A stretch of DNA of 64,000 bases, taken from Bacilli bacterium. GTDB taxonomy: Bacteria > Bacillota_I > Bacilli_A > RFN20 > CAG-826. The position numbers and the translations under genes are program-made. The stretch covers positions 85,773 to 149,772 of the forward strand of contig JAZQOV010000003.1 in NCBI GenBank assembly GCA_045628045.1. Reading direction: 5' to 3'. Below the pieces are notes generated by a model. The model searched no databases, had not been told where the DNA came from, and worked only from the letters and a program-made list of their open reading frames with translations. Every line of letters starts with the position of its first letter. The stretch's first letter is position 1. Shown here piece by piece: positions 3,927 to 20,459 of the stretch.

Positions 3927-4610
3927 TTACCTTTTCTGTTTATTTCTTCTTTTTCTAAGAAACACGAATAAGAAAGCACCACAAGTTACAACGGCTACAC
4001 CACTTACTACACTTATAATAATGATTGAACCATCACTAATAAATGCCCCTACATTATTTGATTTATCACCGTAATAACGGATTGTAATTGATTTAATACA
4101 TTTATCAAAACCACCATTGCCAAATACTACAAAGCAAGGATTACTAATAGATGCATTTTCATCCTCTACAAAGTTTTGATTAGGATCATTAAAAAACAGG
4201 ACTCCAGACTTGTCATTTAAAGTATAAGAAATGGTTACATATGAATCGTTAAATCTCTCAGCATAAATAGAATAAATATTGTTCAAAGTTAAATTTAAGC
4301 TATAACCCCAATCTGTTTCATTTGCAAAAGAAATATATTCTGGCGTTGTTGCAATTAAACAACTAGAAGTGCACTTAAACGGAATTTTTTGGCCTACATC
4401 ATCAAAAATAAATCCTTTATAAATAGGTTTTTCATTCGGGAAATGATTATGCTCATAGTCGAAAATAATAGTCCTTAATTTGCTCTCATCAATTTTTCCG
4501 TCAGCCGAAGCTGGTAAAGGTTTTAAATTTCCTAAAAATGCTAGACCACCCACTAATGCTAGTGACGCAAAACATATTGCTAATTTTTTGAATATATTTT
4601 TCATTTTCAT
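3927..4610 (-). CDS. Secreted protein with C-terminal membrane anchor
   Basis: Signal peptide ending PASA; C-terminal TM helix plus basic tail RKRRNKQKR; ATG overlaps the upstream TGA (ATGA). Confidence 0.7.
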   Translation of the reverse strand: MKMKNIFKKLAICFASLALVGGLAFLGNLKPLPASADGKIDESKLRTIIFDYEHNHFPNEKPIYKGFIFDDVGQKIPFKCTSSCLIATTPEYISFANETDWGYSLNLTLNNIYSIYAERFNDSYVTISYTLNDKSGVLFFNDPNQNFVEDENASISNPCFVVFGNGGFDKCIKSITIRYYGDKSNNVGAFISDGSIIIISVVSGVAVVTCGAFLFVFLRKRRNKQKR

Positions 4611-5257
4611 GCCTCGCATTTAGCATTATTATCGTTTTTACATATTCTTTTTATTAAGAACATGAATGGAACAAACACTAATGAAGGTAATAAGAAAGCA
4701 ATAACATAGTGATTGCACACTGCAAAGTAGTTATAAATTGAATGATATATTATAGCGACAGCCACAAGACCAACAGAGCCCGAAACAAAAAGTTTCTTTC
4801 TGTTTAAGATGAATGATAAGCCAAAACCAACCGCCAGAGTGGTAATAACATGCATCATTCCTGAACCGAACGCTCTTAATATTGCGGTAATTACATCAAT
4901 TTGTTCAGCACGAGATGCAATAACAAATGCGTTTTCTAATATTGCAAAACCAACACCGATTGCAATTGATCGCTCAATTAAATCTTGTCTTGAAGGATGC
5001 ATAACGAATGTACAAATAAAAATAGGTATAATTTTAAGTATTTCCTCAATTATTGGAGAAAATGTTGTGACATATGTTGCTTGTGAATATTTTGTATTCT
5101 TAAAAATAATTCCATTAATTTCACCACATAATAATGCAACAGTTAATCCAATAATAACAAAGCAAACGAGTGATTTTGTCTTACTCTTGGTCATTATAAG
5201 TACAATAAGTAAAGGGACTGTAATACTTAAATACAAAAACAGATTTAAAAATTCCAT
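4607..5257 (-). CDS. PrsW family glutamic-type intramembrane protease
   Basis: SPIIEEILK (EExxK), GVGFAILEN (FxxxEN), MMH and HSIYN motifs; start at MEFLNL (ATG 5257). Confidence 0.85.
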   Translation of the reverse strand: MEFLNLFLYLSITVPLLIVLIMTKSKTKSLVCFVIIGLTVALLCGEINGIIFKNTKYSQATYVTTFSPIIEEILKIIPIFICTFVMHPSRQDLIERSIAIGVGFAILENAFVIASRAEQIDVITAILRAFGSGMMHVITTLAVGFGLSFILNRKKLFVSGSVGLVAVAIIYHSIYNYFAVCNHYVIAFLLPSLVFVPFMFLIKRICKNDNNAKCEA

Positions 5258-5909: not shown

Positions 5910-7337
5910 TTAATTCTCAGCTCGATTACTAGCTCCTTTTCTTTTCTTAAAATATAAAATCATAAATCCAACCGTTGTTACAAGGAATACTCCTGCAGTG
6001 ACGGAGAGCAAAATAATAAGCGAACCGCTTGACATAAGGGTTCCGTTTCCGTCAGAAGGCGTATTATTGTAAAAGGTACAATCTTTTGTAAATGTAAAAT
6101 CATCACTTGAAGCATAGACAAGATAGTATGCGCCGCCTTCTTTTGATGCTTTGCAATCATGTATTTCTAAACACCATAAAGATTGATTTCTATCATTTCC
6201 ATATACGCCACCGCCGTATTCTGCAGAACAATTAAATATTGTTATGTGGTCTAAATCGTTATTAAATCCAGAAGCGTAAATGCCACCACCATATCTACCA
6301 GCTTCACAACCCGAGATTTCTAAAAATGAAGACAAACTTCCATACAAACTTCCTTGCTCACAATCGCTATAAATAGCACCACCATCAAATTTGGCAGTAC
6401 AATCCTTAATTGATGTTTTGTCAAAAGAGCATCTTTGAAATGCATATTGACTTCTTTGATAATCGTAAGCCAAGTTATCTTCTATATAAATAGCACCACC
6501 ATAATATGCTGAACAACCTTCAAAAGTTGATCCTTTTACAGTAAGAATTGGATTGTTACCACCATGAATGATATCTTCAAGATAAACCGCGCCACCATAA
6601 TATGATTGACAATCATTAAATGTGCACCCAGTTAAAGATATGGTGTTGATTTTTTCCATGCAAATTGCACCACCATATCCTGTCGAACAACAATTTTCGA
6701 ATTTACAATTTACAAAACTTGCATCATGACAACCGTCACCCATTGCAAATATTGGGTAAGATAAATTAGTTTTGAAACCAAGAATTGTGGTGTTATACAC
6801 GTCTAATCTACCGGTATCAACCCAAATTGAACAATTGTATTCATCGCCTGAACGTGAAGTTTTAATTGTTCCACCGTCGCCATTAATGGTAAGACTATAA
6901 TCTAATTTCCAATAGTCGCCGTGATTTATTTCTAAGGTTTTTCCGTGTAAATTGATTGTTATCGGCATAGGTAAATTATTACAAAGTTTCAAACTTCTGA
7001 TGACATAGTCTTTTTCAAGATCAATAATACACTTTAACGAGGTTTTTTCACTCCAATAACTATAATAATTTGAATGCATTTCTTGAAAGGTATAATCCAT
7101 GTTTTTATCTTTGAGTTCATAAATCATGTCTTCACCTTCATATACTCTAACTACTAATCCACTAACATCTAAGTGTGGAATATCTTTAGAAATCCCAATT
7201 GTTCTAACTGGCATTTCAGATTCAGTGTCAGCATGTACAGGAGCTATTTTATTAGAACTTCTTATGCATAAATTTGTGCCAACAACCATAAACGTGCAAA
7301 ATAAACCAACTAAAATTGTTTTTGTTATTTTTCTCAT
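5910..7337 (-). CDS. Right-handed beta-helix (Pmp-like GGAIY repeat) surface protein with C-terminal anchor
   Basis: Signal peptide ending VHA; repeats F-x-x-C...YGGAIY/GGAVY/GGGIY; C-terminal TM plus KKRK. Confidence 0.8.
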   Translation of the reverse strand: MRKITKTILVGLFCTFMVVGTNLCIRSSNKIAPVHADTESEMPVRTIGISKDIPHLDVSGLVVRVYEGEDMIYELKDKNMDYTFQEMHSNYYSYWSEKTSLKCIIDLEKDYVIRSLKLCNNLPMPITINLHGKTLEINHGDYWKLDYSLTINGDGGTIKTSRSGDEYNCSIWVDTGRLDVYNTTILGFKTNLSYPIFAMGDGCHDASFVNCKFENCCSTGYGGAICMEKINTISLTGCTFNDCQSYYGGAVYLEDIIHGGNNPILTVKGSTFEGCSAYYGGAIYIEDNLAYDYQRSQYAFQRCSFDKTSIKDCTAKFDGGAIYSDCEQGSLYGSLSSFLEISGCEAGRYGGGIYASGFNNDLDHITIFNCSAEYGGGVYGNDRNQSLWCLEIHDCKASKEGGAYYLVYASSDDFTFTKDCTFYNNTPSDGNGTLMSSGSLIILLSVTAGVFLVTTVGFMILYFKKRKGASNRAEN

Positions 7338-7545
7338 TTTAAATTTAACCTCGAAATTTACGTTATTTTATTTTATAGTATTTTATACTAAAAGTACAAT
7401 AGATTTGTAACCCTCATGCTCGTTATATCGTAAAAGAAATTAAACGTCAAAAATCTATAGAAAAATAGAATTTTCTTGGCCAAATTTCAGAGAAGACATC
7501 GAGTATATTTCTTCTCGTTACGACGGTTAACCATCAGTTCTTCCT

Positions 7546-7688
7546 GGAGGTTCGCTAGGTTCAAGCCTCTAAACCAAACAAAAAGACACCAAAAGGTGTC
7601 TGTTATTGTCTTGTCTTGCTGCAACAAAGTTAATATTTTTTATAACAAGTGCAACGAAGTTAATAGATTGAACGCGACGAAGTTAATA
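7546..7688. repeat. Module A copy 1: hairpin + terminator + TGTCTT + three 15-bp direct repeats
   Basis: TGTCTT at 7607/7612; GCAACAAAGTTAATA 7621, GCAACGAAGTTAATA 7651, GCGACGAAGTTAATA 7674; homologous to 10285-10425. Confidence 0.9.
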
Positions 7689-8195
7689 TATTCTTTCCAA
7701 TATTGGAGTAACTTCAATTATATTTTTACTTTTATCAAGATGGTTTTTGTCCAAAACTGTCTTTGGTCTAACGCAGTATTTAGCATCAATAAAACCAATA
7801 GTACATTCTCCATTAGTAGTTGCAATAGTACATGAGACTTTGCCTTTTTCAAATTTTTCTTGGAATAATAATTTTTGTTCAAATACTGAATCAAAATTAA
7901 CAAGATGTTTGAGCTTTTGCCTAACAAAACCTTTTATTTCTTTTGATGAATCACAATCAAAATCGTCTTCCGCAATAGACTCATTAACACATCTATCAAA
8001 AAACTCTTCAGCACTTAAATTAGTTTTTACACCAGTTAGATGTAGAAAATTAGTCTTATAAAATCTCAAAATATATTTGTCAGAAACAACAAAAAGATTT
8101 GAAGAAACAGTTATTTTTACATTTAATAATTTTGAATAACTTTTTGCTGCATCAACTAGTTGATTTCTTGTTCTTGTTTTAAATGAGATCTGCAT
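7683..8195 (-). CDS. PBECR4 domain protein (predicted BECR-fold RNase)
   Basis: FYKTNFLHLTGV, F...C, QKL and P-K-T-V-L motifs typical of PBECR4; likely start ATG 8195 (MQISFK) after the leader U-tract. Confidence 0.75.
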   Translation of the reverse strand: MQISFKTRTRNQLVDAAKSYSKLLNVKITVSSNLFVVSDKYILRFYKTNFLHLTGVKTNLSAEEFFDRCVNESIAEDDFDCDSSKEIKGFVRQKLKHLVNFDSVFEQKLLFQEKFEKGKVSCTIATTNGECTIGFIDAKYCVRPKTVLDKNHLDKSKNIIEVTPILERIY

Positions 8196-8202
8196 AAGTA
8201 AT

Positions 8203-8303
8203 AAAAAAAGCGTTTTAAGGTGCGCCACCACGACTTGGACAGGTTTAAGGTCTCTGGCCCGACGAATTGGGTGGTCTTTTTATGTCTCCCATCCCTCTTG
8301 ACA
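8203..8303 (-). ncRNA. Putative structured leader/antitoxin RNA with ~2.7 degenerate pseudoknot-like repeats
   Basis: GC-rich ~100 nt between the promoter and a U7 tract; repeated GAGAC, ACCUUAAA and CCAA(U/G)UCGU; last unit GGUG-GCG-CACC-UUAAAA-CGC can form an H-type pseudoknot. Confidence 0.6.
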
Positions 8304-8308
8304 CTTAG

Positions 8309-8337
8309 ATTATAACAAAGTAATAAAAAAGATGCAA
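8309..8337 (-). promoter_or_regulatory. Sigma-70/SigA promoter for the leader RNA and PBECR4 gene
   Basis: TTGCAT-17 nt-TATAAT with extended TG; -35 lies inside palindrome AGATGCAATTAAATGCATCT. Confidence 0.8.
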
Positions 8338-8359
8338 TTAAATGCATCTCAAATTTTCT

Positions 8360-8435
8360 TGTCTTATTGCAACGAAGTTAATATTTCAAATCTTCACTGC
8401 AACGAAGTTAATAGTCGCTAGCAACGAAGTTAACA
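8360..8435. repeat. Module A copy 2: TGTCTT + three 15-bp direct repeats
   Basis: TGTCTT at 8360; GCAACGAAGTTAA(T/C)A at 8369, 8399 and 8421; a degenerate single-site copy lies at 8525-8548. Confidence 0.9.
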
Positions 8436-8738
8436 TATGTTTTTCGCGCTTTTCGACACTAAAATGATAACTTTTATAATTTAATGTTTCAACAACCAAT
8501 TATCATAATTTCATTGTATTAATATGTCTTGTTGTAACAAAATTAACACAATCAATTTAAATTTTTAAAAAAATAAAACTGTTATGATTACTTGTCTCAT
8601 CTTTATCGCAATAATGATTTTTTAACCAAAACGAACGGACATGATAACTTTATCTGAACAACAATCTTATATCACAGATTTTCAATAAAAAAGCAGGACT
8701 ATAAGTCCTGCTAAATACATCAAACATCTATTGTGATA

Positions 8739-9983
8739 TTAAACACCATTATCAACGTTTGATATGCATGGATTAAGCAGCCTCTTGTAGCTCAAATTCA
8801 TAACAAGAGAACTTAATGGCGCAGTTATTAAAATAGATAAAGCAGAAACAGAAAGCACTATAATACCTGCAGCAATAACAGCTTCTGCTCTAGAATTACC
8901 ATTAGCAAGCATTTGATTTCCTAAATCTAATAGTCCACCACCAATCGAGGCTTGAACTGTGGCTTTTGGCAAATAAGAAATAGTGACAAAAGACCTCTCT
9001 TTAAAGTTTAAATCAGTTTTAATTAAGCATCCTTGAACCATTAGTGATCTTGCGGTTAATGAGATTGCTAAGATTACTAGAGCCGGCAAAATGTAAGTTG
9101 GAACGTATTCTAATCTAATTGAAGCTCCAACTAAGAAAAATAGGAACATCTCAGCAGGAATCCATACTTTAGAAGCTTTAGCACTTAATGCTGTAGCCTT
9201 TTCTTTTCTAAACATTCTAATTACGATACACATAGAGATTGTTGCAAGTAAAGATGAGAAGCCTACATAAGGACTAATTACTTCTTCTAAAGCTACAAAG
9301 CCTATACCTATAGCGATTATTAAGAGTAATTTCATTGAATCTCTCATGTGCACCTTTCCAAAAATAAGCTTTAATAAGAAGCCAAAACCTACACCAATTG
9401 CAACACCAATAACGATAGATAACAAAATGTTTACAAAAGCCATGGCGTTTACATTACCGCCAGCTTCAATACTTATAAAAGTCTGATAAAAGACAATCAT
9501 TACGATGTCATCAATGCTACTACCAGCTAAAACTAATTGAGGAATACCCTTCTTAGTTCCAACTTTTTCATCCATTAGTCTTGTCATCATTGGAATTACT
9601 ACTGCAGGAGACACTGCACCAAGTACTGAACCAAGTAAAAAGGACTCAACATATGTTAAATCAAAGAATAAAGGGGCAACTAAGCCTACAACAATCATTT
9701 CAACTACTGCAGGCATAAAAGACATCATAATAGCAGGCCTTCCTACTTTCTTTAAGTCTGCTATATCAAGCGATAAACCAGCTTTAACTAAAATAATAAT
9801 TAAAGCAATTTTCCTTAAGTAAGGTGAAATTGCAGCAAGATTAGGATCAAATGCTCCTATTGCATTAATCAAAATGCCTAATAAAAGGTAACCAATTAAT
9901 GCTGGAACCTTAATCTTATTAAGTAATAGGAAAATTATTGCTCCACCACCTAGAATGATTAATAAGTCTAGAAAGAATAACAT
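8739..9983 (-). CDS. Cation:proton antiporter (NhaP/NHA-like)
   Basis: LGAVSPAVVIP, GSSIDD and LPKATVQA motifs; about 12 TM; GGAGG RBS before ATG 9983. Confidence 0.9.
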   Translation of the reverse strand: MLFFLDLLIILGGGAIIFLLLNKIKVPALIGYLLLGILINAIGAFDPNLAAISPYLRKIALIIILVKAGLSLDIADLKKVGRPAIMMSFMPAVVEMIVVGLVAPLFFDLTYVESFLLGSVLGAVSPAVVIPMMTRLMDEKVGTKKGIPQLVLAGSSIDDIVMIVFYQTFISIEAGGNVNAMAFVNILLSIVIGVAIGVGFGFLLKLIFGKVHMRDSMKLLLIIAIGIGFVALEEVISPYVGFSSLLATISMCIVIRMFRKEKATALSAKASKVWIPAEMFLFFLVGASIRLEYVPTYILPALVILAISLTARSLMVQGCLIKTDLNFKERSFVTISYLPKATVQASIGGGLLDLGNQMLANGNSRAEAVIAAGIIVLSVSALSILITAPLSSLVMNLSYKRLLNPCISNVDNGV

Positions 9984-10284: not shown

Positions 10285-10425
10285 GGAAGGTCGCTAGTTC
10301 AGCCTCTAAGCCAAACAAAAAGGACACATAGTGTCCTGTTATTGTCTTGTCTTGCTGCAACAAAGTTGATAGTTTTTAAAGTCATCGCAACGAAATTGAT
10401 AGTTACAAAAGCAACAAAGTTGATA
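10285..10425. repeat. Module A copy 3
   Basis: Homologous to 7546-7688; TGTCTT at 10343/10348; GCAAC(A/G)AA(G/A)TTGATA at 10357, 10387 and 10411. Confidence 0.9.
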
Positions 10426-10537: not shown

Positions 10538-11197
10538 TTATACGGCTTTTGACTGGTACTTATACCAAATTAGGCCATCCAACTTCTTAACTGTTAAGTG
10601 AGGATACTCTGCTTTTAGAACATTAACTGCATCCTTCATTAAACTCTGGCATTCAGCATTTGAAATGTCATACCCAATAGCATCTCTTATACAATGGTGA
10701 ATATGAACGTCTGGTTTACATCTATCATCTGTGCCAGCCAGCATAAATAAATAATCAGCACCAGCATCGCCCATTCCTTTAACTGAATGAATAACAACCT
10801 CAAGCAACTCAGGATGCTTAAAGTTTTTAAAGTCATCCATGGTATTAATGCCTAAATCTAATAGATACTCTGCTAATTTATAAATAACAGCAGATTTTCT
10901 GTTATGCCCAATAACCTGCATGTTCTTTAAAATATTCTGAGCAAATTTTTCTGTGCCACCTGCTTCATCAATGTGGTTAATAAGTTGTTTTAAATCATCA
11001 CCTGTAGCATATTTATCACCATTCATGTATGTTTTTGCATATCTATCAACAATTGGAACAGTAACTGCAAAATATTTAGCCCTTAAAGAATAAACACAAT
11101 CAATTAAACAAACAGACATTGATGAATATCCATTCGCGTAGTGCTTTTGATTTAAATCAAAATTAGTTTTACAAAATTGAACAAATTCTTCAATCAT
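10538..11197 (-). CDS. HhH-GPD superfamily DNA glycosylase-like protein
   Basis: HhH-like VKGMGDAGADY followed by KPDVHI (catalytic-Asp-like position); LIDCVYS and LDGLIW motifs. Confidence 0.6.
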   Translation of the reverse strand: MIEEFVQFCKTNFDLNQKHYANGYSSMSVCLIDCVYSLRAKYFAVTVPIVDRYAKTYMNGDKYATGDDLKQLINHIDEAGGTEKFAQNILKNMQVIGHNRKSAVIYKLAEYLLDLGINTMDDFKNFKHPELLEVVIHSVKGMGDAGADYLFMLAGTDDRCKPDVHIHHCIRDAIGYDISNAECQSLMKDAVNVLKAEYPHLTVKKLDGLIWYKYQSKAV

Positions 11198-11201
11198 AGT
11201 A

Positions 11202-12290
11202 TTAATTTTTATAAAGTTTAAAATCTCCTATTTCCTTAGTTCTTGAGTTAATAGTTTTTAAAGAAATTTCAGATGCATCCATACCAACCCAAGTCCTTGA
11301 ACGTAATTTTGATGCCCACAATGTTGTTCCGCTACCGGCAAAGCAATCCATAACAATACTATTTTCAGAAGAAGATTCATCAATAATTCTGAGAATCATA
11401 TCAAGATTTTTTTCTGTTGGATATCTTGGATATTGAGGATCTTTAAATGTCCAGACATCTTGTATTTTTTTACCTTTATGTTCATCAGCATATTTTTTAA
11501 TTCTAGGGTTTCCTGTTTTTGACCATTCAATTAATCCTTTGGAATCCAATTCATCAAAAACTGCAGGATCGGTTCTCCAATGTCTACCTTCAGGAGGCAT
11601 CATACCGCGCCATTCCTTCCCTGTAACGCCATTCGTCTCTCCTGGAGCATGTAACGGTATAGTTGTATAGCGCCTTCCATTTTCATCAATTTTAGGAAAC
11701 AATTTCGCCAGCTCTTCATCGGAAGCTTTTTCCTTAATTTCATTCCATAATTGGTTTTTACCGTTTTTACAATAAAAGAAAATGACATCTTTTTCGTTTC
11801 CGTATGCTTTTCTATCAAAATTTTTTGGATTAGATTTAATTCTTGTAATATCATTTCGATAATTTTCTTCTCCAAAAATTTCATCCATTAATATTTTTAC
11901 ATAATGACCAATTTTGTAATCTATATGTAGATAAATGCTGCCTCTATCAGTTAAAAGCTCTCTTATAATGATTAATCGTTCTCTTAAGAATTCTAAAAAT
12001 TCACCTTTAGTCATTTCGTCAGAATATGCAACCTGTCCTTTTTTTGATCTGCTAATTGTGCTGCACCTTCCTTCTGATACAGCAAATGATTGATTTGTAT
12101 TAAAAGGTGGATCTATATATACCAAATCAATACAAGGGCCGCATGTATTTAATAGTTTAGAGAGTCCTTCAAAATTATCTCCAAATATAAAATTATTTTG
12201 GTTTAAATCTAAATCTTCAAACTTATCAAAATTTCTTGATTGTTTGAGAATTTCACTCTCACTTAATTTTTCATCGAATTTTAATTGCAT
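11202..12290 (-). CDS. Site-specific DNA methyltransferase (N6-A/N4-C, beta class)
   Basis: Motif IV YIDPPF precedes motif I DCFAGSGTT; YPTEK motif. Confidence 0.95.
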   Translation of the reverse strand: MQLKFDEKLSESEILKQSRNFDKFEDLDLNQNNFIFGDNFEGLSKLLNTCGPCIDLVYIDPPFNTNQSFAVSEGRCSTISRSKKGQVAYSDEMTKGEFLEFLRERLIIIRELLTDRGSIYLHIDYKIGHYVKILMDEIFGEENYRNDITRIKSNPKNFDRKAYGNEKDVIFFYCKNGKNQLWNEIKEKASDEELAKLFPKIDENGRRYTTIPLHAPGETNGVTGKEWRGMMPPEGRHWRTDPAVFDELDSKGLIEWSKTGNPRIKKYADEHKGKKIQDVWTFKDPQYPRYPTEKNLDMILRIIDESSSENSIVMDCFAGSGTTLWASKLRSRTWVGMDASEISLKTINSRTKEIGDFKLYKN

Positions 12291-12292
12291 AA

Positions 12293-13096
12293 TTATAACG
12301 AATATAAAAAGTCTCTTAATACTAAAGCAGAAACAATAATGTCATCAGGATTATTTTCTAGGTACTTATGCATTTTATTTTTGCCTTTTATATATAAAAC
12401 ACCGTCCATAATAGCTATTTTTACAACTTTAACATCCTTTGCTTTTCCGCCTTCTAAAATAGAGTGTGTGGTTGAAATAGCATCATCAAATTGAGCGTCT
12501 TGGTGACCACCAAAATCAGTTAAGAATTTAGCCTCACCAATTACATATGTATTGTTGAAACGAGCAATAAAGTCAAGTCCTTTATCTCTATTAAAACCAA
12601 AGTACTCCTTTGCAAAATTTTTCATTTCTGCATCGCTAATATTAAGAATCGCGTTTCCTTTGGATAATAAAAATTCCGGTACATTTTTATAGACTGGGGC
12701 TCCTAAACATCCTTTGTCTATCCAATTCTTAAACATTGGACCAATTTGTCTATTCGTTTCTTTTGGTTCTGTACAATTATCATAAATTTCATCAAGCCCC
12801 ATTTCGTAGAGCATTCCACTAATACGATCGATTGTATTAGGATTTCTTTCAATAGCTGTTCTATCTCTTTTCAAGTAAGCAATATAAGAATCCTTAATTG
12901 GGAAAATATCAAAATCGCACAAAGCTTTAATTAAATCTATATTATTTTTGTGTTCAAAATTATATTTAACAGTATTCCATTCTTTATCCCCAATTTCTCT
13001 CCTTGCATTAGCAGACATTGGGTATACTTTGTAAAGTAAATCTAAATAATTCTTTTGGTTCGCTAAATCAACACTTTGTTTTGTCCAGAAGTTCAT
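12293..13096 (-). CDS. Type II restriction endonuclease, Tsp45I-like
   Basis: KGLDF...IGEAKFLTDFGGHQDAQF PD-(D/E)xK core and YLDLLYKVYP N-terminus recalled from the Tsp45I family; adjacent MTase; GGAGG RBS before ATG 13096. Confidence 0.8.
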   Translation of the reverse strand: MNFWTKQSVDLANQKNYLDLLYKVYPMSANARREIGDKEWNTVKYNFEHKNNIDLIKALCDFDIFPIKDSYIAYLKRDRTAIERNPNTIDRISGMLYEMGLDEIYDNCTEPKETNRQIGPMFKNWIDKGCLGAPVYKNVPEFLLSKGNAILNISDAEMKNFAKEYFGFNRDKGLDFIARFNNTYVIGEAKFLTDFGGHQDAQFDDAISTTHSILEGGKAKDVKVVKIAIMDGVLYIKGKNKMHKYLENNPDDIIVSALVLRDFLYSL

Positions 13097-13198
13097 AAAA
13101 GCCTCCTTATTTATATATCTTTGTGCTAAATAAGTCACAAAGAAATAAAGTATGGCAATATTATACTCCTCGTTTATACTTTTTTAAATTATTTTGAC

Positions 13199-13753
13199 TT
13201 ATAACAATGACATATTAATAATTTCATCTATCGAAACTTTGAAAATAATAGAAAATTTATAAATTAGCTCGAGTGAAGGCAATCTATGACCTTCTGTGAT
13301 TGCTACTATAGTAGATCTGTCAACGCCGATCATACTAGCGAATTCCGTCTTGCTTGAATAGCTTTCTTTAATAAGAAGTTCAATCTCCTTACCCAAAAGA
13401 ATCGGATTGATTTGTTTATAAATTGTGTTGTTTTTATTAAAAAATATCATCAGCCACTTGTCGTATGCCGATGATATTGATTGATAATAGAATTTAGGTT
13501 CTTCTTCATCCTTATGATGCCATTCAAGATAATCTATAGCATCCTTTTCATATTGAGTGAGAAGATTATCGTATTCTTTATATAATAAAGTGTATTTAGT
13601 TTTTTCTATTTTATCTTCAAATGTATCTGGTTCACTTTGATTAAGAAATCTGTATCTTTTTGAATCAGATCTAAAGTCTCTAATGTATTCCTTAATAAAT
13701 TTCTTAAATCCGTTTTTACTTTTTGCAAACACATAAGCGCAACTTATCTTCAT
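13199..13753 (-). CDS. XRE-family HTH domain protein
   Basis: C-terminal SKTEFASMIGVDRSTIVAITEGHRLPSLE HTH. Confidence 0.8.
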   Translation of the reverse strand: MKISCAYVFAKSKNGFKKFIKEYIRDFRSDSKRYRFLNQSEPDTFEDKIEKTKYTLLYKEYDNLLTQYEKDAIDYLEWHHKDEEEPKFYYQSISSAYDKWLMIFFNKNNTIYKQINPILLGKEIELLIKESYSSKTEFASMIGVDRSTIVAITEGHRLPSLELIYKFSIIFKVSIDEIINMSLL

Positions 13754-14387
13754 AAATATCCATCACCCTATTAGATATATTCAATAAGTCTAGATACTCT
13801 GCAAGTAAAATATAAACTTTTCGCGGATATCTGATTTCTCTAATGCATTTTTCAAAGACATGATCACTATAGTGTTTCATCAATAAAGTGCCAATAACAG
13901 CTCTATAAGCGAGTTTATCACTTTCTGGCATCTCATCTCTTAAATAGATTAATTCCATCGCTTCCATGATGAATTGAATATCAATAAGATAAAAATCATT
14001 TTTCGTTTCGTATAATTGAATATTTAATTGTTCAATCAATTTATTTCCATCGGTATAACTCGTTATTATTTCAGCAAGTGATGGTTCATCATAAATAAGT
14101 TCGTGTTCATACAAAAGAGATCTACCACATTTTAGGCCTCTATAATTTTTTGTGTAAAATTCAATAACTCTATCCCTATCGCTTAAATCTGAATCGCCAA
14201 TTAAATAAATGCCTTTTGAAATTTTCCTTAATATGCCTTCTTTAGAAATTCTAGAAATATATTTTCTTAGATTATCAATGGAAATGTCAGGAAATACATG
14301 CGTTGATACATAGCTAAAATCTAAAACACCACCCAAGTGGTTTCTCAAGTAAAGTCTTATTTGTTCAGTATCTGTTAGTCTTGCCAT
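13716..14387 (-). CDS. DUF6088/AbiEi-like winged-helix protein
   Basis: LRKYISRISKEGILRKISKGIY wHTH; palindrome AGAGTGAATTTAATTCACTCT in the promoter; leaderless start 6 nt after TGTTAGAAT. Confidence 0.65.
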   Translation of the reverse strand: MARLTDTEQIRLYLRNHLGGVLDFSYVSTHVFPDISIDNLRKYISRISKEGILRKISKGIYLIGDSDLSDRDRVIEFYTKNYRGLKCGRSLLYEHELIYDEPSLAEIITSYTDGNKLIEQLNIQLYETKNDFYLIDIQFIMEAMELIYLRDEMPESDKLAYRAVIGTLLMKHYSDHVFEKCIREIRYPRKVYILLAEYLDLLNISNRVMDIYEDKLRLCVCKK

Positions 14388-14456
14388 ACTCATATTCTAA
14401 CATAAGAGTGAATTTAATTCACTCTTTTTTTGAAAAAGTTCACTTAACTCATAACC

Positions 14457-14475
14457 TGCGGAGGTAGGATTTGAA
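14457..14475 (-). repeat. tRNA-fMet 3' fragment (att-like)
   Basis: Identical to 10510-10528. Confidence 0.85.
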
Positions 14476-14651
14476 ACCTTTCCCACATCCTGCCGAGGTA
14501 ATTTTTAAGAATGAAGCAATTTTATCACAAATTTAAAAAACGAGACATTGTCCTGTTTTTGGCTATAAATAATTATGTAATATTATATACATAGTATATA
14601 AGCATGAAAAAAGACAACCTCACTGATGTAAGATCGTCTCGTTTTCTCGAA

Positions 14652-14729
14652 TGGTTGCGGAGGCAGGATTTGAACGCTGCGACCTCAAGGTTATGGGCCT
14701 TGCGAGCTACCAGGCTGCTCCACTCCGCG
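14652..14729 (-). tRNA. tRNA-fMet (CAT), atypical
   Basis: CGCGGAG...CTCCGCA-ACCA with C1:A72 mismatch; anticodon arm CAAGG-CCCATAA-CCTTG; extra C in the T-stem. Confidence 0.85.
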
Positions 14730-19311: not shown

Positions 19312-19349
19312 TTTAATTGCATATTTTTCACGAATTTTATGCAATTAAA
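19312..19349. repeat. 38-bp palindromic direct repeat, downstream copy (contains Fic stop codon)
   Basis: TTTAATTGCATA-14 nt-TATGCAATTAAA; 37/38 identical to 20422-20459. Confidence 0.95.
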
Positions 19350-20385
19350 TTTTGTAATATTTAGCGTATTTGCCACTCTGAATCATTTGAATTTTTAATG
19401 AATCAGTTAACTCTTTTAATGATTTTTCAATTGTGGTTCTAGATAAATTAATTAAAACTTCCTCAATTTCAGCTTTTGTTATAGGTAGTTTTGAATCATT
19501 AATAACTTTAAGCACCTTATCGTTTGCAACACCACTCATGTTGTTGGTTTCAATAATATATGCGAGTTTTTCATAACCTTCCTTGAGACATTTGAGCATA
19601 AAATGGGTAAAGAATGCATAATCATTTTTGTCTTCATGCCAACCTATTGATGATTTTTCTAAGGTTTCATAGTATTCATTCACGTTGCTTAAAATAACAT
19701 ACGACAAAGAATAATATTGATCTAATTCATAACCATACTTTAGCAAAAGGAATGTTGTTAATAATCTAGAAATGCGGCCATTGCCATCATAAAAAGGGTG
19801 AATACATAAAAAATCAGTAATAAAGACAAAGATTGTTAATAATTTGTTACAATCTGGATCTTTCATGCATTCGTTAAATTGATAGACAAGGTTTCCCATT
19901 AAATCATCAACCTCTTCTGGTTTTGAAGGGATAAAGACTGTTCTAACCAAATTTCCTTTTGAATCAAACTCTCTAATATAGTTTTGTTCAACCTTGTATT
20001 TACCGCCAAATTCTGGAGTAATTGATTGATATAAAAAGTAATGTAAATCCTTAATGTAAGACTCAGAAAGAGATTGATATTTGTAAACTTGAAATACATT
20101 CTCTAATGCATTGTTGTAGCCTAGCAAGAAATATTCTTCTTTGGTTTCAGGGTCCATATGTTTTAGCAAAATATCATTTTCTCTATATTTTTCAACTTTA
20201 ATGCCCTCAATTTCATTTGAACTAGTTACACTTCTTCTTTTATTTAAATCATGTAAACGGTTCAATTTAATCTTTGACGGTAAATTAAAAGTTTTGCCTC
20301 TATTAACCTCAACTGATTGGATCATTGAAATTATCAGCGGATCATTTAGTTTTAACACTTGTTCTTTAAGATTTATGAATTTCAT
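19345..20385 (-). CDS. Fic family protein (class II-like) with C-terminal wHTH
   Basis: HPFYDGNGRISR; N-terminal SNEIEG inhibitory motif; promoter TTGACT-17-TATTAT 6 nt before ATG 20385. Confidence 0.9.
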   Translation of the reverse strand: MKFINLKEQVLKLNDPLIISMIQSVEVNRGKTFNLPSKIKLNRLHDLNKRRSVTSSNEIEGIKVEKYRENDILLKHMDPETKEEYFLLGYNNALENVFQVYKYQSLSESYIKDLHYFLYQSITPEFGGKYKVEQNYIREFDSKGNLVRTVFIPSKPEEVDDLMGNLVYQFNECMKDPDCNKLLTIFVFITDFLCIHPFYDGNGRISRLLTTFLLLKYGYELDQYYSLSYVILSNVNEYYETLEKSSIGWHEDKNDYAFFTHFMLKCLKEGYEKLAYIIETNNMSGVANDKVLKVINDSKLPITKAEIEEVLINLSRTTIEKSLKELTDSLKIQMIQSGKYAKYYKI

Positions 20386-20421
20386 GTCTATATAATAATA
20401 TAGCCAAAAATCTGAGTCAAG

Positions 20422-20459
20422 TTTAATTGCATATTTTTCGCGAATTTTATGCAATTAAA
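20422..20459. repeat. 38-bp palindromic direct repeat, upstream copy
   Basis: Matches 19312-19349; abuts the Fic -35 box. Confidence 0.95.

Follow-up and report, generated by a model that had tools for sequence, protein, structure and literature searches.

A predicted PBECR4 endoribonuclease behind a tandem pseudoknot array: a probable type III-style toxin-antitoxin system with gene-less copies in phages

Introduction

In the genome of a member of the Bacilli (GCA_045628045.1), a gene for a predicted nuclease of the PBECR4 family lies behind a short leader of repeated units, and the question raised by this locus is whether the leader RNA is an antitoxin to the nuclease. Type III toxin-antitoxin loci are defined by a layout of promoter, repeats, terminator and toxin gene (PMC12283969). 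As of October 2026, the pseudoknot-repeat type III families described still number three, and a single toxin fold is conserved in all of them (PMC13682666, PMC12283969). The systems with an RNA antitoxin that are named in the accessible text of recent accounts are ToxIN, CptIN and TenpIN, plus AvcID, AbiF and AbiV (PMC12283969, PMC13682666, PMC13064643).

The window referred to here is the whole stretch of DNA that was analysed, 64,000 nt of contig JAZQOV010000003.1 (positions 85,773 to 149,772), and coordinates are those of the window unless a locus is named.

Results and Discussion

Layout of the locus

All of the elements of the module are on the minus strand:

8337-8332, minus strand: -35 element TTGCAT, weak (3/6 consensus), within an upstream terminator-like hairpin called by the scan at 8350-8329
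8317-8309, minus strand: extended -10 element TGTTATAAT, perfect match
8314-8309, minus strand: -10 element TATAAT, 17-nt spacer to TTGCAT
8303-8269, minus strand: pseudoknot unit 1, S1 UGUC/GACA, S2 GGG(A)UGG/CCACCC, A-rich long loop
8263-8237, minus strand: pseudoknot unit 2, the family core unit, S1 GUC/GAC, S2 GGG(C)CAG/CUGUCC, loop CUUAAAC
8231-8209, minus strand: pseudoknot unit 3, S1 GUG/CAC, S2 GGCG/CGCU, loop CUUAAAA
8209-8203, minus strand: U7 tract; a U tract is kept in 28/28 own-clade loci
8195-7683, minus strand: PBECR4 (PF18813) open reading frame, ATG start, 170 aa, no Shine-Dalgarno (SD) sequence, predicted endoribonuclease

The preliminary description of this locus had called TTGCAT-17-TATAAT a strong promoter. 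Both elements are present, but TTGCAT agrees with the consensus at only 3/6 positions and the promoter scan of the window made no call at this site; any strength of the promoter is due to the perfect extended -10 and not to the -35. Transcription is predicted from the sequence to start near 8304-8302, and a -10-like element just upstream of unit 1 is conserved in 20 aligned leaders. The GC-rich leader (53 % GC, against 32 % for the window), the U7 tract and the ATG without an SD were all confirmed. It is likely that the U7 tract is a leaky terminator built on S2 of unit 3; the terminator scan of the window called nothing at this position, where a 4-bp stem and U7 are present with no canonical terminator hairpin. 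A translation start at GTG 8231, inside the leader, had been raised as a reading that would count against the module. This codon is in frame in only 5/28 own-clade loci and was rejected as the start.

The module is flanked by a second kind of repeat:

8325-8433, minus strand: upstream flanking repeat, three TTAACTTCGTTGC boxes, a separate feature that is not general to the family
7577-7686, minus strand: downstream flanking repeat with a hairpin and three boxes, forming with the upstream copy a direct repeat of 90 nt at 72 % identity
7621-7686, 8369-8433 and 10357-10423, minus strand: box triplets, found also at C6:58944-58996 of the genome

In each triplet, a 13-base box recurs at a spacing of about 22-30 nt and is followed by a hairpin. 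The downstream copy is retained only in a 93 %-identical relative (L001), and the triple-box repeat was rejected as a part of the family, being present among the homologue loci only in the source genome and in this relative. The triplets flanking the module are possibly cassette boundaries or recombinase sites. Elsewhere in the window, a DNA methylase, a Tsp45I-family restriction enzyme and an HTH gene are found at 10538-14729 (minus strand), downstream of a tRNA-Met (about 14652-14729), and Fic-domain genes are at 292-1185 and 19345-20454. It is likely that the module sits in an island region.

The predicted nuclease

The open reading frame had been described as PBECR4, and this was upheld: PF18813 was its sole profile match (E 6.4e-19; 69.5 bits against a curated cut-off of 27), all 42 of the 42 aligned members match the same profile, and the top clusters of the ESM Atlas agree. 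The protein had no match in PADLOC, NCBIfam or the PDB sequence searches. BFVD gave two strong matches, both without names, PHROGs gave matches to unknown families only, and an annotated phage collection contained no match to the protein and none to a sister-clade array.

The AlphaFold2 model (pLDDT 96) consists of helices and then a four-strand meander. Among 42 close homologues, there is no variation at His52 (in NFLHLTG), Lys94 or Pro144, and at least 90 % have Thr146, which is less conserved in the wider alignment; in the model, His52 is in a helix (47-54) and Thr146 in a strand (142-149). A helix with a four- to five-strand sheet, a histidine in the helix and a serine or threonine in a late strand, the features by which a BECR fold is recognized, were all found in the model. 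The predicted topology, with its conserved His and Thr, is BECR-like. Compared at full length with the PDB, the model gave no meaningful match, only helical-bundle noise. When the core (residues 44-156) was used, the colicin D tRNase came top (Z 4.3, rmsd 2.6, 68 aligned), the next rows were BrnT, CdiA-CT toxins and RelE-type toxins, and the first row in Foldseek was RelE (E 0.42). These fold scores are weak (Z at most 4.3), yet all point to BECR, and the core is predicted to be BECR-like. The rows listed by the fold searches included no chain of ToxN, CptN, TenpN, MazF or Kid. Likewise, no family named for ToxN, AbiQ, CptN or TenpN was listed at E <= 0.1 for the 42 members in Pfam, NCBIfam and PADLOC, libraries that may differ in the models they hold.

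The pseudoknot array

The leader contains three complete H-type pseudoknots, each beginning GUC or GUG, with 5-nt linkers between them (AAUUC and AAGUC). The approximately 2.7 degenerate units of the preliminary description were therefore out of register, its first unit being without its 5′ half. For unit 3, the H-type knot that it proposed stands but the GGUG/CACC register does not, as this is broken in 3/15 variants; the register GUG(8231)/CAC agrees with the other units. The A-rich runs, previously read as linkers at which the toxin processes the RNA, are positioned between the 3′ strands of S1 and S2. In every pseudoknot they form the long loop, and they were rejected as linkers and as cut sites. 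Compensatory variants of S2 of unit 1 occur in loci L031, L059, L061, L018 and L063, and S2 of unit 3 varies among relatives as GACG/CGUC, AGCG/CGCU, CGGCG/CGCCG and AAGGCA/UGCCUU. Unit 2 was scored at E 1.6e-6 by the RNA model R1, the training set of which included the unit of the 93 %-identical relative.

Pairing in a single sequence proves little alone: as many as 2321 units and 3 triple arrays of the 1.07-Mb genome satisfy a loose pseudoknot descriptor, which is not specific. Nested minimum free energy folding of the leader was worse than that of shuffles (z +2.09) and gave no support, ViennaRNA being unable to form pseudoknots. The case for the pseudoknots rests on conservation and covariation instead. 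In Rfam, there was no match to the array in the window, in 12 homologue loci or in 20 phage loci, nor to the drum or DUF3800 RNA motifs in window positions 7300-8800 at E <= 5.

Conservation and covariation of the units

Homologous loci were gathered from genomes and metagenomes. Two or more units are present in 63 of the 70 distinct homologue leaders (each at least 120 nt), and by the same pattern in 1 of the 777 open reading frame leaders of the source genome, which is likely to be that of this gene; the contrast is somewhat inflated, because the unit pattern was derived from these loci. Five leaders have no unit by the pattern. Two of these (L044 and L045) belong to other PBECR4 clades with other RNAs, and in L025 a variant unit is visible by eye. 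In the remaining two (L020 and L064) the array is absent from the sequence examined, and these are the only two members of the clade in which an intact frame is without the RNA.

The common design of the unit is an S1 of 3-4 bp (GUC/GAC), about one G, an S2 of 5-7 bp, one A and an A-rich loop of 6-7 nt. Covariation was assessed in 48 non-redundant units that share the most frequent geometry, chosen by the S1 core, the spacing and two As only. By MI-APC, six of the top seven pairs among 630 are predicted pairs and the remaining one is one column off. Across the 48 units, 88 % of cells are paired, variation on both sides is seen at each of the six S2 pairs and both stems covary strongly. Double-sided changes number 101, against 31.7 +/- 4.8 in shuffled units, and the covariation score is 0.552 and, on sliding, never exceeds 0.203; such counts are inflated by related sequences. 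An A is found four bases 5′ of S1 in 36/48 units. The preliminary description had made its proposal depend on a conserved structured RNA upstream of the homologues, and this was found, with strong covariation. On this comparative evidence, the repeats are predicted to fold as H-type pseudoknots.

Array layout and gene loss in bacteria

The arrays contain 1-4 units. RNA type tracks the protein tree (70 rows, with 8 near-duplicates dropped and L066 labelled by its identity to L069). In the sister clades, the promoter is followed by repeats, a separate hairpin terminator with a U tract, often an SD, and the gene. The type III-like layout proposed for this locus is complete in those clades, and here too a putative toxin gene lies behind a promoter and tandem RNA repeats, which is a mark of type III loci. 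In the subclade of the window, the last stem and U tract probably take the place of the terminator hairpin, and an SD is present at 0/28 own-clade loci, against 330/653 open reading frames of the genome. A more distant clade has near-exact direct repeats of about 45-55 nt, every one closed by a pseudoknot of this kind. What is established is how the loci are laid out, that the units are conserved and covary, and that they are tied to one PBECR4 clade.

RNA model R1 alone was searched in 151 family genomes. Twenty loci were recovered at E <= 1.3e-3 (two further matches had no locus), with the gene downstream in ten. Of the other ten, eight were full gene-less arrays, one had the start of its gene broken and the last was a single unit next to a tRNA-like sequence. 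At several loci, an intact RNA stands before a broken gene. Judging by these sequences, the RNA outlives the gene, and such one-way loss, with arrays kept, matches the expectation for an antitoxin-toxin pair. An intact promoter, array and U tract without the nuclease gene was seen in bacterial loci L109, L113, L115, L120, L121, L123, L124, L126 and L131. Three RNA runs yielded short contigs of relatives only, and one RNA-library contig joins an array to the last codons of a gene.

These data bear on a different reading of the array, as a cis-acting leader (attenuator or operator) through which the expression of PBECR4 would be controlled by PBECR4 itself or by a ligand, with no free antitoxin. 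The array is always 5′ of the gene and on the same strand, it ends in a U tract or terminator and, in the subclade of the window, the last stem adjoins the SD-less start, all as expected of a cis leader; riboswitches, too, can fold as small H-type pseudoknots whose loops are A-rich, and a likeness to SAM-II is described (PMC4627078). However, a copy number of 1-4 and exact tandem repeats fit such a leader poorly, as do arrays that remain intact after loss of the gene and phage copies that lie before unrelated genes or in tRNA clusters. In addition, the terminator of the sister clades is a separate hairpin with, by eye, no evident competing stem. A purely cis-acting role is therefore considered unlikely, and an antitoxin RNA is the preferred reading.

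Presence of the module is patchy, with 17/301 genomes of the order and 3/15 others in the genus carrying it, and the protein profile search returned 328 clusters at 50 % identity (E <= 1e-10). A named, cultured source is the Clostridium estertheticum plasmid of L107, where a complete three-unit module lies near a SIR2-family gene (L107:1202-2710 and 3995-4714). In L002, the gene is followed in tandem by a second array and gene, and in L015 a second promoter and the start of an array are behind the gene. The module of L030, counted among the sites with two tandem modules or arrays, is between two tRNA-Leu genes.

Gene-less copies in phages

An RNA-only pattern matched 84 sites on viral contigs, and the reversed-pattern control matched 0. 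The gene is within 900 nt downstream at 3/84 sites and a broken copy at 1, leaving 80 without the gene. When 50 phage records were searched whole, PF18813 was found in the positive control only, and in 0/12 of the records that are at least 90 % complete. Gene-less copies are thus present in phages as well as in bacteria. The 80 orphan loci form about 31-36 clusters, taken as independent phage contexts.

In the orphans, the three S2 pairs on which the pattern sets no condition are kept in 81/102 cells, against 58.3 +/- 3.4 in shuffled sequences, and these pattern-free pairs covary. A second family unit is in register in 32/60 orphan contexts, against 20/3096 background positions, and seven of those 32 second units are of the terminal kind that typifies arrays linked to the gene; often, the bacterial array is reproduced, with terminal unit and 32-34-nt spacing. 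The orphan form is that of the sister-clade unit. The phage pattern has no match in the source genome, and a pattern for unit 3 of the subclade of the window matched 1 viral stretch only. A pattern for the long-repeat type matched 8 viral-contig sites, 4 of them with the gene.

Only 3/62 orphan contexts are inside an open reading frame. There are tRNAs within 1.5 kb in 24/62, and all 106 of these tRNAs are on the strand of the unit. Portal, scaffold, tail, endolysin, integrase and anti-repressor genes are among the orphan neighbours (31/56 ORFs from 20 loci scanned). Many orphans precede head, scaffold or other genes, a position that would also fit a cis role. By analogy with pseudo-ToxI, it is likely that the phage orphans act as decoys. 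In L164, a DUF3800-XI RNA (L164:1600-1647) is behind orphan pseudoknot units, a hint that several decoy RNAs may be clustered. One provirus record (L208 and L228) has gene-less short-unit and long-repeat arrays a few hundred bases apart.

Orphans are found between tRNAs, and also between genes of the phage, on the strand that is transcribed. Such positions could also be those of a general element for RNA end protection or processing, with which phages would mature or stabilise their tRNA and late transcripts, PBECR4 being a harmless, maturase-like RNase that cleaves at the units. PBECR RNases have been proposed, by analogy with RegB, to serve phages (PMC5512222). Such an element would be expected to recur as punctuation, yet there is mostly one site per phage record, the nuclease is missing, the positive control apart, from the 50 phage records searched whole, and the orphans often mirror a bacterial array down to its terminal unit and spacing. 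Among 401 genomes of the host class, the phage pattern occurs in only one, at a gene-less array, and the unit is therefore no housekeeping signal in the class. This explanation, too, is improbable.

Alternatively, the module could serve for addiction through an RNA antitoxin, carried in mobile cassettes and playing no part against phages, its gene-less copies being decayed remnants or anti-addiction elements. Close relatives have different neighbours (the adjacent genes differ even in the 93 %-identical relative), a same-strand tRNA gene is just upstream in 7/65 loci, one copy is on a Clostridium plasmid and complete modules are present on some viral contigs. However, the orphan units of about 31-36 phage contexts keep covarying pairs and sit in tRNA clusters and in operons of structural genes, and this argues for selection in phages. 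Addiction without defence is therefore very improbable, and the decoy reading is retained for the phage copies.

Comparison with known systems

Like CptIN, ToxIN (AbiQ) and TenpIN, the module has a promoter, tandem H-type pseudoknots (identical or not) and a single gene for a predicted RNase, with a clear terminator between them in the sister clades and a likely leaky one in the window (PMC12283969, PMC13682666). The closest known unit is CptI, which is likewise H-type with a one-G short loop and an A-rich long loop (PMC4627078). The units here are about 27-35 nt with a GUC/GAC stem of 3-4 bp, whereas ToxI is given as 36 nt and CptI as 45 nt. The array also differs from those of the three known families in having linkers that are not A-rich and no Rfam match and, in the subclade of the window, no separate terminator hairpin and no SD. 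The putative toxin is a PF18813 protein with a predicted BECR-like core, whereas the known type III pseudoknot toxins are described as ToxN-like Kid homologues (PMC4627078). It does not belong to the ToxN, CptN or TenpN toxin families and, because the toxin family differs, the locus is outside ToxIN, CptIN and TenpIN.

Toxins of a fold other than that of ToxN under an adjacent ncRNA, as predicted here, are also found in AbiF/RbiF, AbiV and AvcID, and the AbiF RNA is upstream of its gene as it is here; those toxins are HEPN nucleases or a deaminase, and tandem pseudoknot repeats are not described for them in the accessible text (PMC13064643, PMC12283969). The pseudo-ToxI of phage TE is a set of phage-borne antitoxin repeats without a toxin, as the orphans would be. 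It is reported from one phage and became effective after repeat expansion in escape mutants (PMC3475682), whereas the gene-less units here are natural and span about 31-36 phage contexts, with a putative decoy role.

The PBECR domains of PMC5512222 are of the same Pfam family and have a helix histidine and a C-terminal threonine or serine, to be compared with His52 and Thr146. They are described there as phage and mobile-element effectors in polyvalent proteins, and the accessible part of that paper describes no associated RNA, toxin-antitoxin or host-defence role. PBECR4 is mentioned in an Enterococcus transcriptome study, and the accessible text of a 2026 preprint on BECR classification mentions neither pseudoknots, ncRNA nor type III systems. 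No description of PBECR4 linked to an RNA was found in the accessible literature; supplements and most subscription papers could hold one.

Other PBECR4 clades are preceded by other RNAs. The drum RNA (RF02958), a terminator-ended ncRNA tied to a neighbouring protein gene and without known function (PMC5737381), is directly upstream of a distant PBECR4 gene at L044:2119-2228 (minus strand), and L023 and L026 are drum-like by eye. Drum has no match in the window or in the pseudoknot-array loci scanned. Further unrelated promoter-ncRNA-terminator leaders precede the PBECR4 genes of L045, L048, L010, L042, L043 and L047; L045 and L048 share one leader, and L045 has no Rfam match. Because other clades follow leaders of this kind, one of them drum, RNA control across the PBECR4 family is suggested, and drum may be the antitoxin of another clade.

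Proposed mechanism

It is probable that this is a type III-style toxin-antitoxin system in which a predicted BECR-fold RNase is silenced by the pseudoknots encoded upstream, that its role is anti-phage, and that the gene-less copies in phages are decoys. We infer toxicity, RNA binding, cleavage, an RNA target and defence along the following lines. One promoter would give an abundant short RNA that mostly ends at the U tract, and rare read-through together with the missing SD would keep the level of toxin low. The toxin may cleave the 4-5-nt linkers, where the conserved A lies four bases before each S1, and the released pseudoknots would stay on the enzyme and block it. On shut-off of transcription by a phage, the RNA would be depleted and the RNase freed to act on tRNA or mRNA, aborting the infection. 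Phage look-alike units, expressed from tRNA clusters and late operons, would then keep the RNase blocked, in the manner of pseudo-ToxI (PMC3475682).

The broader proposal of a fourth pseudoknot-repeat type III family, with a BECR RNase and not the ToxN fold, against which dozens of phage lineages carry decoys in tRNA clusters or late operons, is given slightly better than an even chance.

Implications

The module would belong to an undescribed family of RNA-controlled anti-phage toxins. If so, antitoxins built as pseudoknot arrays can have partners of a second enzyme fold, that of the BECR nucleases. Mimicry of RNA antitoxins by phages has one clear precedent in the accessible literature, pseudo-ToxI, and would here be common in nature; RNAs of 30 nt would suffice for a direct test. 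Should the enzyme share the sequence specificity of other type III toxins, it could serve as a new tool for cutting RNA. For the PBECR4 domain, a concrete function would be provided and, as PBECR4 may be a toxin family in which each clade is under a different ncRNA, perhaps one for the drum RNA also.
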